In this document: in pieces, positions 3,580 through 26,384 of the stretch
Layout: each line of letters opens with the position of its first letter
How positions within the stretch are numbered: the first letter of the stretch is position 1
DNA from: Escherichia coli
GTDB taxonomy: Bacteria; Pseudomonadota; Gammaproteobacteria; Enterobacterales; Enterobacteriaceae
Length of the DNA stretch: 64,000 bases
Assembly: GCF_030013205.1 (NCBI RefSeq)
Contig: NZ_CP122648.1
Reading direction: 5' to 3' (one strand)
Notes under the pieces: model-generated
The model's database searches: none
What the model saw: the letters and a program-made list of their open reading frames with translations, nothing else
What the model was told of the DNA's origin: nothing
Made by a program: the position numbers and the translations under genes

Positions 3580-4299
3580 GTGAATTCACTCTATACCGCT
3601 GAAGGTGTAATGGATAAACACTCGCTGTGGCAGCGTTATGTCCCGCTGGTGCGTCACGAAGCATTGCGCCTGCAGGTTCGACTGCCCGCGAGCGTGGAAC
3701 TTGACGATCTGCTACAGGCGGGCGGCATTGGGTTACTTAATGCCGTCGAACGCTATGACGCCCTACAAGGAACGGCATTTACAACTTACGCAGTGCAGCG
3801 TATCCGTGGCGCTATGCTGGATGAACTTCGCAGCCGTGACTGGGTGCCGCGCAGCGTGCGACGCAACGCGCGTGAAGTGGCACAGGCAATAGGGCAACTG
3901 GAGCAGGAACTTGGCCGCAACGCCACGGAAACTGAGGTAGCGGAACGTTTAGGGATCGATATTGTCGATTATCGCCAAATGTTGCTCGACACCAATAACA
4001 GCCAGCTCTTCTCCTACGATGAGTGGCGCGAAGAGCACGGCGATAGCATCGAACTGGTTACTGATGATCATCAGCGAGAAAACCCGCTACAACAACTGCT
4101 GGACAGTAATCTGCGCCAGCGGGTGATGGAAGCCATCGAAACGTTGCCGGAGCGCGAAAAACTGGTATTAACCCTCTATTACCAGGAAGAGCTGAATCTC
4201 AAAGAGATTGGCGCGGTGCTGGAGGTCGGGGAATCGCGGGTCAGTCAGTTACACAGCCAGGCCATTAAACGGTTACGCACTAAACTGGGTAAGTTATAA
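3580..4299 (+). CDS. fliA: flagellar sigma factor sigma28 (FliA), 239 aa, GTG start
   Basis: Translation from GTG 3580 reads (M)NSLYTAEGVMDKHSLWQRYVPLVRHEALRLQ...; ORF-track N-terminal extension trimmed to the conserved start. Confidence 0.93.
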   Translation: MNSLYTAEGVMDKHSLWQRYVPLVRHEALRLQVRLPASVELDDLLQAGGIGLLNAVERYDALQGTAFTTYAVQRIRGAMLDELRSRDWVPRSVRRNAREVAQAIGQLEQELGRNATETEVAERLGIDIVDYRQMLLDTNNSQLFSYDEWREEHGDSIELVTDDHQRENPLQQLLDSNLRQRVMEAIETLPEREKLVLTLYYQEELNLKEIGAVLEVGESRVSQLHSQAIKRLRTKLGKL

Positions 4300-16142: not shown

Positions 16143-16640
16143 TTAGTTTTGTGTGTCGAGGGTAGAGAGTTCTTTGTCGATAAAATACAAACCTTCGCCG
16201 CTTTTGCCTGCCAGGCTTAATTTATCAATAATCGATTTGAACAGTTTCTCTTCTTCATGCTGCTCAGAAACATACCATTGCAGGAAATTAAAAGTTGGGT
16301 AGTCCTGATTGGTCATTGCAGCATGAGCCAGTTCGTTAATTTGCTGGGTGATTAATTGTTCGTGTTTATAGGTTTCCTGGAATAATTCATCAAGTGAGGA
16401 ATATTCAGCAAACGGAGATTCAACGGTATTAATACGCGGTAAATTGCCGGTATCAGTCAGATAATCAAACAGACGCTGCATATGCGTCATCTCTTCCTGG
16501 GCGTGACGGCGCAGGAACGCGGCAGCACCTTCGAAGGTATGATAGCTGCACCAGGCGCTCATTTGCTGATAAAGCAGTGAAGAGTACAGTTCCAGGTTCA
16601 TCTGCTCATTAAGTTTTTCAATCATTTCTGGTTTCAGCAT
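16143..16640 (-). CDS. ftnA: ferritin FtnA, 165 aa
   Basis: [61 protein letters not shown] ferritin ferroxidase residues; ORF-track start trimmed. Confidence 0.93.
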
Positions 16641-16811
16641 GATAGTGCTCCACAAAGGTTATATTTGTTGCTGTGGCGTCACTATAATTTGTTATTTTAT
16701 TATTTGCAAAAGGTAAAATATAAACTTCATTTATTAAAAATACGAATGGGAATAAAACGCATTACCGCTATTTATTTAATCAGCGAAGATCCCCCTCGCT
16801 GATTAAAACAT

Positions 16812-17135
16812 TTAGAGAAAGACAGGGAAGGCGGAATGATGGCACTGATATGACAAAGTGAATTCCGTATTCAAACATAAGGAACCCGCAAAGAGGCTAC
16901 AGTTGCCTACTGGCTGACCAAAGGGGATAGCGTGGGTATAGCCTTCCTGCTGGCATGCGCGATCGGCGATCCCGCGACTGACATAACGATCGGTACGGGC
17001 ATGCTGCAAAAAAGCCTGATCATAAACCAACCGAACAATACCTGTTGCCGCGTCAACTTCGCCCACATGAGCCTGGCGAGTAACTGTGCACCCCGCCAGC
17101 GTTATTAATGAAAGAGTCAGAATCAGAAGTCTCAT
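16812..17135 (-). CDS. yecR: lipoprotein YecR, 107 aa
   Basis: MRLLILTLSLITLAGC lipobox signal then mature domain. Confidence 0.85.
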   Translation of the reverse strand: MRLLILTLSLITLAGCTVTRQAHVGEVDAATGIVRLVYDQAFLQHARTDRYVSRGIADRACQQEGYTHAIPFGQPVGNCSLFAGSLCLNTEFTLSYQCHHSAFPVFL

Positions 17136-17298
17136 GGTCCAGCCAGAAGAGTAAAAGAAAGCAGTATTTTACGCGTTACAGCGCTGCGACAATGGCCGGA
17201 AAAGACGCCTGGCAGGCGCTATTTCTCGCCATCTGTATGTGTCAGAAAGGGGGGGCTGCTTTTTGATTATCATTTTTATAACATTAAAGGGGTATTTA

Positions 17299-17314
17299 TG
17301 TGATTTGCATCACA
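17299..17314. promoter_or_regulatory. CRP binding site upstream of azuC
   Basis: TGTGA-tttgca-TCACA, perfect CRP half-sites with 6-nt spacer, about 85 nt upstream of azuC ATG. Confidence 0.6.
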
Positions 17315-17396
17315 TAAAGATTGATTTTTGTGATGGTTGTCATATTATAAGCGCAAAGACAATAACACCTGTATAACAAATGGTCGGAGTGCCGCG

Positions 17397-17483
17397 ATGA
17401 AACTGCGCAAAATCCTGAAAAGTATGTTCAACAACTATTGCAAAACGTTCAAAGACGTACCACCAGGCAATATGTTCCGATAA
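17397..17483 (+). CDS. azuC: small membrane-associated protein AzuC, 28 aa (absent from supplied ORF track)
   Basis: atgaaactgcgcaaaatcctgaaaagtatgttcaacaactattgcaaaacgttcaaagacgtaccaccaggcaatatgttccgataa = MKLRKILKSMFNNYCKTFKDVPPGNMFR, followed directly by a terminator. Confidence 0.75.
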   Translation: MKLRKILKSMFNNYCKTFKDVPPGNMFR

Positions 17484-17484
17484 C

Positions 17485-17512
17485 AAAAAACCTGCTCCGG
17501 CAGGTTTTTTTG
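17485..17512 (+). terminator. rho-independent terminator after azuC
   Basis: aaaaaacctgc-tccgg-caggttttttt. Confidence 0.75.
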
Positions 17513-17597
17513 TGTCCTGGTGACGGTGGATGTGACTATCGCTGAAGATGTGAAGCCGCTACTATAACGGCTTTCAAAATGCTATCAGGAGTTTACG

Positions 17598-17849
17598 ATG
17601 TCCCAGCCGCTGAATGCCGATCAGGAACTGGTTTCTGATGTGGTTGCTTGCCAGTTGGTTATCAAACAAATTCTGGATGTTCTCGATGTAATCGCGCCCG
17701 TTGAAGTTCGTGAAAAAATGTCCAGCCAGCTGAAGAATATCGACTTTACTAACCATCCCGCCGCCGCAGACCCGGTCACCATGCGGGCAATCCAAAAAGC
17801 CATCGCGCTGATTGAACTCAAGTTTACCCCACAGGGCGAATCCCATTAA
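17598..17849 (+). CDS. yecJ: small protein YecJ (DUF2766), 83 aa
   Basis: [83 protein letters not shown]. Confidence 0.85.
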
Positions 17850-17928
17850 AAAAACCGCGGCTTCAAAAAGATGAGGCAGCGGTTTCTCAAAAACTTCATC
17901 GGCGCAATGCATTAGCGCCGATGTATGA

Positions 17929-18432
17929 TCAATGCAGCTGATGCGACACGACATTCAGAACATGTTGGTCGGTCTGCACAGGGCACATACCCGCAAGTTT
18001 CGCACTGCGCACTTCATCAAGAATGGTTTGCAGCAACAGGCCATCATGCTGCTGTTCTTTTTCCAGATCGCGCAGGAAATTGACGGTTGAATCATCATTC
18101 AGTTCTTTCGCTTCATCGGCTAACTGCGCCAGCGTGCTTGAACGTTGCTCGTATTCTTCCATCGTTTTTTGGAACAGTTCTTCCAGAGAGTTCAGTTTTT
18201 CACCGGGAACATCAATGGCTTTAACGATGGGGGTAGCGCCGACACTCTTCATAAAGTTAAACATGCGCATCATTTGGGTCACGTTACTCTGTGCCTGGGC
18301 GCGAAGGAAAGTGGCGGTGCCGTTCAGACTCTGTTCAGAACACCAGTTACTCAGGTGAAGGTAGAGATTGGATGCGTAAAACTCGCGGTTCATTTGAGAG
18401 TTGAGTTTGAGAAGCATTCCAGCGGTTGCCAT
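17929..18432 (-). CDS. ftnB: ferritin-like protein FtnB, 167 aa
   Basis: [61 protein letters not shown], paralogous to FtnA. Confidence 0.9.
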
Positions 18433-19228
18433 ACCTAATATCCTTATATCCAGAAGTGGAGAGGTGCAAGATAAATCAAAACACCATAATTACTGTTTGC
18501 AGAATAATTCCTTTCTGCCGGTCCGAAATGTGATCGTGGAGTCAATTCTGACGATGATCTGAAATAAGAATAACGTCTGAGCGGGTATAAGAAAATGCTT
18601 AAATCATCAAGTTTATATATTTTTACATTTCATTGATGAAATCAATGTAACTGCAATGAATTTTAATGATAGTGCTTTTTGTATCTTGTTGATATTAATC
18701 GATGAATTTGAATTCATGATGAAGTGATGATTTTATAAAACGTTTTTTCATTTTTGCGAGATGGCTCTCATTATACGTGTTCTGTTAATTAATGAGCACA
18801 GTGATAATTAATGGCGAAATGAATGACGCGCATTTTCCACATCTTTGAGTTGTGGTTATTACACCATTTCAAAAACTCAACGCCAGGTAATGCGGCCTGT
18901 TGACTGGTTAAAAAGAAGACATCCCGCATGGGTACCAAAGACAACAAGGATTTCCAGGCTAATCTTATGGATTAATCTGCTGTGCACTAGCCAATTTGTC
19001 AGACAAATTGGCTTTTCCTTATGTCTTTTCCCGCTAAATTTATGCACGTTCTCACTGTAATTCTGCGATGTGATATTGCTCTCCTATGGAGAATTAATTT
19101 CTCGCTAAAACTATGTCAACACAGTCACTTATCTTTTAGTTAAAAGGTAATGCTTTGTTTTCCGATTAATTTAACGAATGTCATTCGTTTTTGCCCTACA
19201 CAAAACGACACTAAAGCTGGAGAGAACC

Positions 19229-20218
19229 ATGCACAAATTTACTAAAGCCCTGGCAGCCATTGGTCTGGCAGCCGTTATGTCACAATCCGCTATGGCGGAG
19301 AACCTGAAGCTCGGTTTCCTGGTGAAGCAACCGGAAGAGCCGTGGTTCCAGACCGAATGGAAGTTTGCCGATAAAGCTGGGAAGGATTTAGGGTTTGAAG
19401 TTATTAAGATTGCCGTGCCGGATGGCGAAAAAACATTGAACGCGATCGACAGCCTGGCTGCCAGTGGCGCAAAAGGTTTCGTTATTTGTACTCCGGACCC
19501 GAAACTCGGCTCTGCCATCGTGGCGAAAGCGCGTGGCTACGATATGAAAGTCATTGCCGTGGATGACCAGTTTGTTAACGCCAAAGGCAAGCCAATGGAT
19601 ACCGTTCCGCTGGTGATGATGGCAGCGACCAAAATTGGCGAACGTCAGGGCCAGGAACTGTATAAAGAGATGCAGAAACGTGGCTGGGATGTCAAAGAAA
19701 GCGCGGTGATGGCGATTACCGCCAACGAACTGGATACGGCTCGTCGCCGTACTACGGGGTCTATGGATGCGCTGAAAGCTGCAGGATTCCCGGAAAAACA
19801 AATTTATCAGGTACCTACCAAATCTAACGACATCCCGGGGGCATTTGACGCTGCCAACTCAATGCTGGTTCAACATCCGGAAGTTAAACATTGGCTGATC
19901 GTCGGTATGAACGACAGCACCGTACTTGGCGGCGTACGCGCGACGGAAGGTCAGGGCTTTAAAGCGGCCGATATCATCGGTATCGGTATTAACGGTGTGG
20001 ATGCGGTGAGCGAACTGTCTAAGGCACAGGCAACCGGCTTCTACGGTTCCCTGCTGCCAAGCCCGGACGTACATGGCTATAAATCCAGCGAAATGCTTTA
20101 CAACTGGGTAGCAAAAGACGTTGAACCGCCAAAATTTACCGAAGTTACCGACGTGGTATTGATCACGCGTGACAACTTTAAAGAAGAACTGGAGAAAAAA
20201 GGTTTAGGCGGTAAGTAA
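19229..20218 (+). CDS. araF: L-arabinose-binding periplasmic protein AraF, 329 aa
   Basis: MHKFTKALAAIGLAAVMSQSAMAENLKLGFLVKQPEEPWFQTEWKFADKAGKDLGFEVIKIAV...; ORF-track start trimmed. Confidence 0.94.
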   Translation: MHKFTKALAAIGLAAVMSQSAMAENLKLGFLVKQPEEPWFQTEWKFADKAGKDLGFEVIKIAVPDGEKTLNAIDSLAASGAKGFVICTPDPKLGSAIVAKARGYDMKVIAVDDQFVNAKGKPMDTVPLVMMAATKIGERQGQELYKEMQKRGWDVKESAVMAITANELDTARRRTTGSMDALKAAGFPEKQIYQVPTKSNDIPGAFDAANSMLVQHPEVKHWLIVGMNDSTVLGGVRATEGQGFKAADIIGIGINGVDAVSELSKAQATGFYGSLLPSPDVHGYKSSEMLYNWVAKDVEPPKFTEVTDVVLITRDNFKEELEKKGLGGK

Positions 20219-25604: not shown

Positions 25605-26384
25605 AACCTGTTCCTTATTCTGTGAACTTCAGGTGACATTAAAGCTTTACTCCTAATGGAGAAACGACGCAATCCCAACTCAGTCAAACAGGTAAATATT
25701 AGTCTGATTATTAGTAAAGACAATTAATCAATCACTCTCGGTGATCATATGATTTCAACTGTAATTATAAGAAAATAATGTACTGATTCTCCATATTAAA
25801 CAAGTGGTTAATACATGTAAAACATTTTATTAACATTAAGTTGATTGTTGCCTTTCTTTGTATTTAATTAGTTTGTTGTGCGGTAAATGTCTGTTTAAAA
25901 ATAGCTTATCTGGTATTGCATTAAAGCAATTATTTATGGCAGATGATTATTTACGGTGAGTTATTTTAACTGTGCGCAACATCCCATTTCGATTATTCCT
26001 GTTTCATTTTTGCTTGCTAGAGTCGCGAAAAACTTTTTAACAGATTGAAATACACCCAAAACAAAAGTATGACTTATACATTTATGTTAAGTAATTGAGC
26101 GTTTTGTGTGATCTGTATCACACATTATTGAAAATCGCAGCCCCCCTCCGTTGTATGTGAGTGTAGTGACGAGTAAAGTTGCGTCGATTTAGGAAAAATC
26201 TTAGATAAGTGTAAAGAACCCCTTCTATTTGTGAGGACTTATTAAATCCAAAAAAGGGGCTCTGCCTGTTGCAGCTTATCGCAACTATTCTAATGCTAAT
26301 TATTTTTTACCGGGGCTTCCCGGCGACATCACGGGGTGCGGTGAGACCGCATAAAAATAAAGTTGGTTATTCTGGGTGGGAATA
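25605..26384 (+). promoter_or_regulatory. flhDC upstream regulatory region and long 5' leader (AT-rich), no IS element present
   Basis: 780-bp AT-rich intergenic segment preceding flhD; by established knowledge this region carries the class 1 promoter and multiple regulator and sRNA target sites; individual sites not resolved here. Confidence 0.5.

Follow-up and report, generated by a model that had tools for sequence, protein, structure and literature searches.

The intergenic region between ftnB and araF of Escherichia coli raises the question of why it is so long and so rich in A+T. In the window, by which we mean the whole stretch of 64,000 nucleotides of E. coli DNA analysed here, the gap occupies positions 18433–19228 (796 bp) between two divergent genes, namely, ftnB (167 aa, minus strand), the upstream side of which lies at 18432, and araF (plus strand), the ATG of which is at 19229; a Shine–Dalgarno sequence is present at both edges. 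No feature is annotated within the gap in MG1655 (NC_000913.3 1986129–1986924) or in the 100 %-identical strain K_EC180, and the neighbouring gaps in K-12 measure 69–262 bp. An earlier note on this DNA had described some 800 bp of strongly AT-rich sequence without an assigned gene, and both statements hold, the G+C content being 35.3 % in the gap and 50.4 % in the whole window. Nearly all E. coli genomes carry the sequence once, with a median of one place per genome and a maximum of two (5,432 places in 5,417 records). The analysis described below indicates that this long AT-rich gap is ordinary and largely already explained: very probably, it is ordinary regulatory DNA put together from separate parts, and its length goes back to an accident of history, the loss of a DJ-1-family gene.

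We compared the gap with those of other Escherichia species, using fourfold-degenerate sites (60–76 % identical to other Escherichia species) as a neutral yardstick. Identity was 91–93 % on the ftnB side, including the ftnB leader, 84–87 % on the araF side, 58–63 % in the AT-rich core and 46–50 % in the relic segment, which also contained 9–18 gapped columns. Thus, both promoter-proximal parts are conserved above the level of fourfold sites, the core is not above that level and the relic segment is below it. A comparison of conservation had been proposed in the earlier note; conservation across genera was found on the ftnB side and on the araF side; the middle, 18641–18942, changes at or above the synonymous rate. 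The features located in these parts are listed in Table 1.

Table 1. Features of the ftnB–araF gap, in window coordinates. Individual AraC, CRP and CpxR sites were assigned by motif matching and should be read as putative
Feature	Position	Strand	Remarks
ftnB 5′ untranslated leader, ~128 nt	18433–18560	−	GGA motifs, Shine–Dalgarno; start probably near 18560
ftnB core promoter region	18555–18605	−	σ70 peak, conserved box; hexamers putative
CpxR-like box GTAAAAATATATAAA	18612–18626	−	9/10 of GTAAA-N5-GTAAA (motif scan)
AT-rich core, 24 % G+C	18641–18756		From ancestral ftnB–DJ-1 spacer; approximately neutral rate; H-NS in K-12
FNR box TTGATATTAATCGA	18689–18702		9/10 here; perfect TTGATATTAATCAA in K-12 (motif scan)
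CRP-like site TGCGAGATGGCTCTCA, 8/10	18755–18770		Half-sites semi-conserved within Escherichia
Unalignable relic segment, 186 bp	18757–18942		Probable place of lost DJ-1-family promoter/leader and deletion junction
ORF tracked in the earlier note, 71 codons, TTG start	18845–19060	+	Not a gene
AraC half-site-like pair, 21 bp apart: TAGCCTGGAAATCCTTG (18945–18961), CAGCAGATTAATCCATA (18966–18982)	18945–18982	−	Pattern scan
Perfect 11-bp hairpin followed by TTTTCC	18989–19013	+	Terminator scan; conserved core palindrome ATTTGTCnGACAAAT
Third AraC half-site-like sequence TAGCGGGAAAAGACATA	19020–19036	−	Pattern scan, within conserved block
Most conserved araFGH block: CRP-like TGTGATATTGCTCTCC (19069–19084), TATGGA (AraC A-box complement, 19085–19090)	19053–19112	+	
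CRP-like site TGTCAACACAGTCACT	19114–19129	+	Overlaps putative araFGH −35
araFGH −10-like GGTAAT (19146–19151), presumed start near 19157–19161, leader, Shine–Dalgarno GGAG (19219–19222)	19146–19228	+	

The segment 18433–18640 is the strongly conserved leader and promoter of ftnB. On the ftnB strand, the leader carries four GGA (CsrA-type) motifs (18441–18443, 18449–18451, 18509–18511 and 18522–18524), matching the published CsrA-repressed ftnB leader, for which four GGA motifs, three CsrA footprints and a fusion covering +1 to +152 from the transcription start have been described (PMC6686035). Two K-12 Term-seq 3′ ends, 1986856(+) and 1986899(+), correspond to positions 18501 and 18458 within this leader; located on the strand opposite to araF, they are the only ends in the gap in the available part of the K-12 Term-seq supplementary files. 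Similarly, the only σ70 ChIP-seq peak in the gap, U00096.2 1984820, detected under both aerobic and anaerobic conditions (Myers et al. 2013 supplement), maps to position ~18561, at the ftnB promoter. In this region we found a −10-like TATTCT (18567–18572) and the box ATAAGAAAATCCTTAA (18586–18601), which is conserved across genera. A consensus scan for σ70 promoters gave no sites at the threshold of the tool. The sequence TCAGA, also in this region, could be a candidate σE promoter element. Both σE- and Cpx-dependent ftnB promoters are cited in PMC6686035, and ftnB is listed as positively Cpx-regulated (PMC9600279). The block GTTTATnnTTTTTTACAT at the CpxR-like box is conserved across genera; a single CpxR-like match in an AT-rich gap is not significant alone, and the CpxR pattern count was not above chance. 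Compared with the known control of ftnB, the CpxR box and the promoter hexamers in the window are thus assignments at the level of motifs.

The ftnB control region runs to ~18700 and includes an FNR box ~135 bp upstream of the probable ftnB start. This box corresponds to the known FNR site of K-12 ftnB, with one mismatch, G for A, in the window strain. In Table S6 of Myers et al. 2013, the site is given at 1984679 as TTGATTAATATCAA, with a score of 15.49 and the label ‘araF/ftnB’, and this published coordinate (U00096.2) exactly matches our mapping of the box. For the same K-12 site, the table records no FNR ChIP-seq peak and an overlapping H-NS ChIP-chip enrichment. PMC3212961 cites binding of FNR at an unusually distant position upstream of ftnB in E. 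coli, and the Salmonella gene is bound and repressed by H-NS (PMC3212961). The locus resembles the H-NS-masked ‘silent’ FNR sites (Myers et al. 2013), likewise AT-rich stretches under H-NS with a consensus activator site that is unoccupied. The perfect FNR box of K-12 would be unused because it lies inside H-NS-covered DNA derived from an older divergent promoter region.

The earlier note had described phased A/T tracts in the gap and had named H-NS-bound curved DNA as a possible role. The H-NS part of this suggestion is borne out by the published K-12 overlap at the FNR box; the phasing is weak and not convincingly above chance. We found no AA/TT periodicity at 10–10.5 bp, and none over 18580–18950. 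Modest power at 11–11.5 bp appeared in two of three intervals (p = 0.005–0.02 before correction for nine periods and three intervals), and was lost after multiple-test correction. For the paralogue ftnA, Nandal et al. reportedly described in 2010 an upstream region silenced by H-NS, with Fur-dependent relief. The ftnB gap is likewise AT-rich, H-NS-occupied and upstream of a ferritin-family gene, but it lacks a Fur box: in a motif scan, no position of the gap matched at least 13 of the 19 bases of the 19-bp consensus, and Fur anti-silencing as at ftnA was therefore dropped. Salmonella ftnB also lacks a Fur box (PMC3212961).

On the opposite side, the segment 18943–19228 is the araFGH control region, conserved across genera. 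It is 98 % identical to the K-12 araFGH promoter (Hendrickson; Johnson and Schleif; summarised in PMC2893085), in which the −35 region of ParaFGH is overlapped by a CRP site, with AraC upstream. We found nothing functionally different from the K-12 promoter, a CRP-type site lying over the putative −35 and AraC-type half-sites upstream; the window strain carries a rare allele at 18989–19013 that perfects a palindrome. The araF promoter with AraC and CRP sites that the earlier note expected in the gap thus appears to reside in these araF-proximal 286 bp, which are conserved in every genus examined. The accompanying remark that the gap is longer than this promoter requires was correct, the araFGH control region accounting for 286 of the 796 bp.

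Three AraC half-site matches lie on the same strand within 92 bp, for which ~0.03 would be expected by our own estimate from the window-wide rate. The AraC pattern count is not enriched over chance, and the support comes from clustering and conservation. The predicted outer limit of the araFGH control region is set by the distal pair of half-sites: all genera conserve this block, and it is here, just past the terminator hairpin of a DJ-1-family gene, that homology to the outgroups starts. The block 19053–19112 hardly varies among 23 sequences that represent at least eight genera; the CRP-like site at 19114–19129 is conserved in Escherichia only. The number of CRP-like sites in the gap, three, is higher than in shuffled controls (P = 0.007). 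In addition, GGTAATGCcTTGTTTT and CCCTACAnAAA...AAAGCTGGAG are conserved in all genera. From this spacing and the EcoCyc entry, the araFGH start is presumed to lie near 19157–19161. Judged by conservation, the control region would reach ~215 bp upstream of this presumed start, and in the outgroup alignment the ancestral araFGH control region abutted the terminator of another gene.

This other gene was identified by comparison with related genera. In the family tree, Escherichia stands closest to Salmonella and Citrobacter; Enterobacter, Leclercia, Lelliottia, Silvania and Huaxiibacter are more distant. Among 38 loci recovered with FtnB, a sample that does not include E. fergusonii and Shigella, an intact 185-aa ORF lies between ftnB and araF in 24 (Citrobacter, Leclercia, Lelliottia, Enterobacter, Silvania and Huaxiibacter); in two Salmonella loci it adjoins ftnB, and araF is absent. 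The ORF matches Pfam DJ-1_PfpI (E = 9e-30) and NCBIfam TIGR01383, DJ-1 family glyoxalase III (131.8 bits, cutoff 131.25). All seven Escherichia loci have a gap of 789–800 bp without this gene, and its DNA gave no match in 5,426 E. coli genomes. No remnant was detected in Escherichia by tblastn (E ≤ 10), nhmmer --max, Smith–Waterman alignment against shuffles or a six-frame search with a protein profile, and the same profile detects decayed copies in Citrobacter. The gene is decaying in four separate lineages, by internal deletions or a frameshift, indicating that its loss is an observed tendency. Two loci, of Intestinirhabdus and Dryocola, have neither araF nor the DJ-1 gene near ftnB.

In the outgroups, spacers with median lengths of 521 bp (35 % GC) and 316 bp (40 % GC) flank the 558-bp gene (55 % GC), compared with E. 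coli counterparts of 510 bp (~35 % GC) and 286 bp (37 % GC). The start of a profile of the outgroup spacers matched window positions 18437–18756 (E = 2.4e-33), and positions 18942–19228 aligned to the DNA just past the terminator hairpin of the outgroups (E = 2e-68). A resemblance of CTGGTTAAAAAGAAGACATCCCG to the 3′ end of the DJ-1 gene and its terminator, seen by eye, lacked statistical support, and therefore no claim is made from it. The arrangement resembles other gene-loss scars in enterobacterial genomes, in which a gene of the sister genera is absent, the flanks are kept and joined, and orphaned promoter DNA drifts. Compared with the partly deleted DJ-1 copies in three Citrobacter lineages, Escherichia retains no recognisable pseudogene fragment, and the locus is thus a scar rather than a pseudogene.

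Between the two control regions, the relic segment 18757–18942 showed no homology to the outgroups by nhmmer, by Smith–Waterman alignment against shuffled controls or by the DJ-1 protein profile. At its left end, the half-sites of the CRP-like sequence at 18755–18770 are kept in 5–6 of 8 Escherichia sequences, and the 6-bp spacer between them varies. In the outgroups, TTGCGCCAGATCAT is conserved ~100 bp ahead of the DJ-1 ATG, and the CRP-like site may, by a homology recognized by eye only, have descended from this FNR-like box of the promoter of the lost gene. A few short islands of the middle have been kept among Escherichia species, namely, TTGATATT, TCATGATGA, CATTAT, ATTAAT and the CRP-like half-sites, and given these islands the middle is apparently not entirely free of constraint. 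Nevertheless, the middle segment is probably without function, and ~240 bp between ~18700 and ~18943 appear dispensable.

Taken together, the gap would be long because half of it belongs to ftnB and because the two halves were once separated by a gene that has since been lost. In the common ancestor of the Escherichia, Salmonella, Citrobacter and Enterobacter groups, a 185-aa DJ-1/PfpI (glyoxalase III-like) gene would have stood between ftnB and araF, on the araF strand, flanked by AT-rich spacers of ~520 bp and ~316 bp. In the stem lineage of Escherichia, ~590 bp comprising the coding sequence and the terminator hairpin would then have been removed and the two spacers joined. The product would consist of the ftnB control region (18433 to ~18700) with its CsrA-bound 128-nt leader, σ70 and σE promoters at ~18560–18600, CpxR-like box and far-upstream FNR box; the orphaned rest of the old divergent spacer (~18641–18942), no longer constrained and, being AT-rich, coated by H-NS that masks the FNR box; and a complete araFGH control region (18943–19228) with distal AraC-type half-sites, a CRP site over the −35, promoter and leader. 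This reading draws on the synteny, the gene absence, the conservation pattern, the σ70 peak, the H-NS overlap and the CsrA sites, each taken from the present data or from the cited work. The exact transcription starts of ftnB and araFGH within it are probable positions. We infer a single clean deletion; because the 186-bp segment 18757–18942 is unalignable, such an event is indistinguishable from gradual erosion or partial replacement. As the relic segment lies below synonymous conservation, it may have been shaped several times over, independently in individual Escherichia lineages, and not once in the stem.

A hidden gene was the possibility to which the earlier note pointed, and we consider it highly improbable that the extra DNA encodes an unannotated small RNA or protein, either as the ORF 18845–19060 or as a transcript ending at the hairpin 18989–19013. 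The earlier note had itself found no convincing ribosome-binding site for this ORF, in agreement with its TTG start and the absence of a Shine–Dalgarno sequence. Moreover, the ORF is cut to 52 codons in K-12, is absent from other Escherichia species and crosses the conserved AraC-type sites, and it was rejected as a gene. Another ORF of 40 codons (19021–19143, ATG start) is open in most genera, as a coding sequence would be, but it has no Shine–Dalgarno sequence upstream, its variation is equal at the three codon positions (0.212, 0.196, 0.190) without an excess at the third, and it is reduced to 15 codons in two Citrobacter loci; it was likewise rejected. In favour of a transcript stands the perfect hairpin with its T-run on the plus strand, preceded by two elements semi-conserved in the genus, a CRP-like site and the −10-like ATTAAT. 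With 11 pairs (four of them G–C) and a 3-nt loop, this hairpin folds at −13.4 kcal/mol (z = −2.4), but the common K-12-type allele (−6.3 kcal/mol, z = −0.4) is no more stable than shuffled sequences. Alleles at least 99 % identical to that of the window were found in 32 of 5,416 E. coli genomes, and 4,980 genomes, including K-12 (93.8 %), were 90–95 % identical. The hairpin was thus rejected as a general terminator, being a rare allele with no gene or conserved transcript upstream and no 3′ end mapped to it in the available part of the K-12 Term-seq files. A scan of 16500–20000 with Rfam 15 at E ≤ 1 gave no match inside 18433–19228, no 3′ end on the araF strand of the gap appears in the available part of the supplementary files of Term-seq in K-12, a strain with the weaker hairpin allele, and no σ70 peak exists besides that of the ftnB promoter. 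In addition, conservation within the gap is lowest between the putative start and the hairpin. A related idea is that the orphaned promoter of the DJ-1-family gene, represented by the CRP-like site at 18755–18770 and the semi-conserved ATTAAT and GTGATAATTAA islands, is still alive and, upon relief of H-NS and with active cAMP-CRP, could fire toward araF, so that transcription would cross the distal AraC sites and the palindrome. We regard this as very unlikely; if true, it would add a layer to araFGH control, through interference or a cis-acting non-coding RNA, or would couple araFGH to ftnB.

Other explanations concern the origin of the length itself. That selection keeps an extended, curved, H-NS-bound silencer co-regulating ftnB and araFGH, with the length being adaptive, is unlikely, even though H-NS enrichment covers the FNR box in K-12 where FNR is absent, H-NS represses ftnB in Salmonella, and the region is AT-rich with weak 11–11.5 bp AA/TT periodicity. 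Near-matches to TCGATAAATT, the high-affinity motif of H-NS, also occur at 18699–18708 and 18801–18810. Against a silencer stand the failure of the periodicity after multiple-test correction, the presence of the same AT-rich spacer in the outgroups, with a gene interrupting it, and the fact that we found no data for an effect of H-NS on araFGH. The middle 300 bp change at or above the synonymous rate and accumulate indels within the genus, which argues against selection at the level of sequence, but H-NS needs only AT-richness. Another possibility would be that the DJ-1 gene of Escherichia gave way to foreign or newly inserted DNA, now the AT-rich middle, as 18757–18942 has no detectable homologue in the outgroups and the adjoining core, with 24 % G+C under H-NS, has the appearance often seen in horizontally acquired DNA. 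We consider this quite improbable: the outgroup ftnB–DJ-1 spacers are equally AT-rich (32–39 % GC) and of similar length (median 521 vs 510 bp), the profile homology runs colinearly into the AT-rich core, to ~18756, and nearly every E. coli genome has just one copy of the sequence. The outgroup spacer at this place is itself poorly conserved, with 37–58 % pairwise identity, so that a failure to align 18757–18942 is to be expected. The reverse history, with an insertion of the DJ-1-family gene in the other genera and an ancestral gene-free state in Escherichia, could call on the Intestinirhabdus and Dryocola loci, but is extremely improbable. The position and orientation of the gene agree in Salmonella, Citrobacter, Enterobacter, Leclercia, Lelliottia, Silvania and Huaxiibacter, homology to the Escherichia gap extends on both flanks as far as the gene itself, and its decay in four separate lineages points to loss.

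With loss of the DJ-1-family gene as the preferred reading, a conspicuous AT-rich gap can be explained without a hidden gene, by two known control regions and the drifting leftover of a lost neighbour. The small RNA or protein proposed in the earlier note thus found no support in Rfam matches, conserved ORFs, araF-strand 3′ ends in the part of the Term-seq files available or σ70 peaks other than that at the ftnB promoter. The relevance of this result is small beyond a tidy annotation. It provides working boundaries for studies of ftnB and araFGH, with ftnB control extending to ~18700 and araFGH control from ~18943, and H-NS cover as the likely reason for the unused perfect FNR box in K-12. Finally, the locus has undergone reciprocal loss: Escherichia keeps araFGH without the DJ-1-family gene, and Salmonella keeps the DJ-1 gene without araF, araG and the 5′ part of araH.

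The ftnB–araF gap occupies positions 18433–19228, exactly as noted earlier, and places 796 bp between ftnB (167 aa, minus strand, 17929–18432) and the araF ATG at 19229 (plus strand); gaps nearby in the annotation measure 69–262 bp. Its strong AT-richness was confirmed, with a G+C content of 35.3 % in the gap vs 50.4 % in the window. The earlier observation was real except for the phasing of A/T tracts, for which support was weak: AA/TT periodicity was absent at 10–10.5 bp, and that at 11–11.5 bp gave p = 0.005–0.02, uncorrected. The sequence is present as a single copy in 5,417 of 5,426 complete E. coli genomes and is 100 % identical in swine strains such as K_EC180, and no feature is annotated in the gap in either MG1655 (NC_000913.3 1986129–1986924) or K_EC180. 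In K_EC180, RefSeq calls araF and araG (L002 3297–5796) frameshifted pseudogenes, unlike the intact araF of the window; either the genes were recently inactivated or the assembly is wrong here.

The gap owes its length to the loss of a DJ-1-family gene, after which two ancestral control regions, both AT-rich, were joined. We retrieved 38 loci encoding FtnB relatives, one genome per species, and found an intact 185-aa ORF on the araF strand between ftnB and araF in 24 (Citrobacter, Leclercia, Lelliottia, Enterobacter, Silvania and Huaxiibacter); in two Salmonella loci the same ORF adjoins ftnB, and araF is missing. This ORF matched Pfam PF01965 (DJ-1/PfpI family, E = 9e-30) and NCBIfam TIGR01383 ('DJ-1 family glyoxalase III'; 131.8 bits, cutoff 131.25); the YajL model scored it at just 81 bits, and it is therefore not a YajL ortholog. 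The ftnB–araF distance was 1,101–1,435 bp in genomes with the DJ-1 gene and 789–800 bp in all seven Escherichia loci (including E. albertii, E. whittamii and cryptic clades), from which the gene is absent; its DNA gave no match in 5,426 E. coli genomes. The median pieces in the outgroups (non-Escherichia genera) were a 521-bp spacer (35 % GC), a 558-bp gene (55 % GC) and a 316-bp spacer (40 % GC), and the E. coli counterparts of the two spacers are 510 bp (about 35 % GC) and 286 bp (37 % GC), lengths that fit clean excision of the gene. The closest relatives of Escherichia are Salmonella and Citrobacter, with the Enterobacter-group genera further out; because all of these carry the DJ-1 gene, loss in the Escherichia stem is the parsimonious reading. 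The functional parts of the gap are already known from the literature, and this comparative explanation is a minor addition.

A nucleotide profile built from 23 long outgroup gaps matched 18437–18756 (E = 2.4e-33) and 18942–19228 (E = 2e-68), and pairwise blastn to outgroups aligned 18437 to about 18648 and 18943–19228. The right-hand homology starts directly after a G+C-rich hairpin located 3' of the DJ-1 stop codon in the outgroups. The 186-bp relic segment aligned to nothing, with Smith–Waterman scores at the level of shuffled sequences, a failure that is expected because the outgroups themselves share no more than 37–58 % identity in the equivalent stretch, which precedes the DJ-1 ATG. The DJ-1 protein profile gave no match in any Escherichia; the same profile detected fragments in three decayed Citrobacter loci. 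Since identity to other Escherichia species lies above the level of fourfold-degenerate sites at the edges and at or below it in the middle, both edges, the ftnB side as well as the araF side, are strongly constrained, and the middle 300 bp drifts at or above the neutral rate, with the exception of a few 6–9 bp islands.

Features of the ftnB–araF gap and identity to other Escherichia species
Feature	Position	Strand or location	Basis or identity
ftnB side	18433–18640		91–93 %
AT-rich core	18641–18756		58–63 %; G+C 24 %
Relic segment	18757–18942		46–50 %; 9–18 gapped columns
araF side	18943–19228		84–87 %
Fourfold-degenerate sites		ftnB and araF	60–76 %
GGA motifs	18441–43, 18449–51, 18509–11, 18522–24	ftnB strand	
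CpxR-like box	18612–18626	upstream of ftnB promoter	motif match, 9/10
FNR box	18689–18702	upstream of ftnB promoter	9/10 in window, perfect in K-12
CRP-like site (third in gap)	18755–70		motif match
AraC half-site-like	18945–61	minus	pattern match
AraC half-site-like	18966–82	minus	pattern match; 21 bp from preceding match
AraC half-site-like	19020–36	minus	pattern match
CRP-like site	19069–84		motif match
CRP-like site	19114–29	overlaps inferred −35	motif match

In Salmonella enterica subsp. diarizonae and arizonae (L010 2050–2560, L013 2539–2814), the DJ-1-family gene is kept beside ftnB, and only a 3' araH fragment of araFGH remains (residues 193–329 and 238–329). The Escherichia pattern is the opposite, and the locus therefore shows reciprocal loss. 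The gene carries differing internal deletions in three Citrobacter lineages (L008, L015 and L039) and is frameshifted into 77-aa and 119-aa pieces in Leclercia adecarboxylata NCTC13032 (L037), which represents independent decay. In outgroups, a conserved FNR-like box, TTGCGCCAGATCAT, lies approximately 100 bp upstream of the gene (about 3600–3620 in locus L014, with homologous positions in other outgroup loci), with TATAAC approximately 26 bp downstream of the box; these elements suggest anaerobic expression of the lost gene, as for ftnB. A typical enterobacterial ftnB–DJ-1–araF locus, nearly the same as the 'Citrobacter sp. 18056' locus, was also found in CACSKA010000001.1, titled Chryseobacterium sp. 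18061, an assembly that is probably mislabelled or contaminated.

The earlier note had proposed an unannotated small RNA or protein, or H-NS-bound curved DNA. The former proposal was wrong: Rfam gave no match in the gap, and the ORF tracked in that note (18845–19060) has no counterpart in other Escherichia and retains just 52 codons in K-12. A 40-codon ORF at 19021–19143 is open in most genera; its equal codon-position variability (0.212, 0.196 and 0.190) and, in two Citrobacter loci, its shortening to 15 codons indicate that its conservation reflects the overlapped binding sites. The terminator-like hairpin at 18989–19013 was rejected as a general feature, its folding energy being −13.4 kcal/mol here vs −6.3 (z = −0.4) in K-12; this allele is at least 99 % identical in only 32 of 5,416 genomes (4,980, including K-12, are at 90–95 %), and the K-12 Term-seq supplementary files covered here list no araF-strand 3' ends within the gap. 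As for H-NS-bound curved DNA, the H-NS part is supported by the FNR site at 1984679 (TTGATTAATATCAA, score 15.49, 'araF/ftnB'; Myers et al. 2013, Table S6), which is exactly the FNR box of the gap and overlaps H-NS ChIP-chip enrichment, without an FNR ChIP-seq peak. Salmonella ftnB is bound and repressed by H-NS, is activated by FNR and has no recognizable Fur box (PMC3212961); likewise, a motif scan detected no Fur box in the gap.

In the ftnB half, the four GGA motifs agree with the published leader, which has four such motifs and three CsrA footprints (fusion covering +1 to +152 from the start; PMC6686035). The K-12 Term-seq 3' ends 1986856(+) and 1986899(+) correspond to 18501 and 18458, that is, 69 and 26 nt upstream of the ftnB start codon, suggesting that the transcript terminates early or is processed close to the CsrA sites. 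The sole sigma-70 ChIP-seq peak in the gap (U00096.2 1984820, aerobic and anaerobic; Myers et al. 2013 supplement) maps to approximately 18561, beside a −10-like TATTCT.

The last 286 bp show block-by-block conservation in every genus compared. The AraC pattern shows no enrichment over the window as a whole, but its three same-strand matches here fall within 92 bp, far above the roughly 0.03 expected; the three CRP-like sites exceed shuffled controls (P = 0.007). The conserved GGTAAT at 19146–51 would place the araFGH start near 19157–19161, which we take to be consistent with the EcoCyc start. The expected araF promoter is thus borne out by the conserved 286 bp and its AraC- and CRP-like sites, the CRP-like site over the inferred −35 agreeing with the published ParaFGH, in which CRP overlaps −35 and AraC lies upstream (PMC2893085).

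At 18982–19016, the window differs from K-12 at five clustered positions, and these changes perfect a palindrome that is imperfect in K-12, giving 12 bp (AGCCAATTTGTC/GACAAATTGGCT), a pattern typical of template-switch (quasi-palindrome) mutation; this allele is rare and found mainly among swine strains, and the palindrome that Escherichia sp. MOD1-EC7003 carries at this position is a different, AT-rich one. The only part of the hairpin conserved across genera is the core palindrome ATTTGTCnGACAAAT (18995–19009), approximately 160 bp 5' of the inferred araF start, which is kept in most genera (L009–L037) and lost in the Citrobacter freundii group. By its GTCnGAC core it resembles a GntR/FadR-type operator.

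Elsewhere in the window, two CRP sites, one a perfect consensus (TGTGATTTGCATCACA) and one with a single mismatch, occupy 17299–17314 and 17329–17344, just upstream of and over the promoter region of azuC/AzuR; azuC encodes MKLRKILKSMFNNYCKTFKDVPPGNMFR within the ORF at 17337–17483. A further perfect CRP site is located at 26107–26122.
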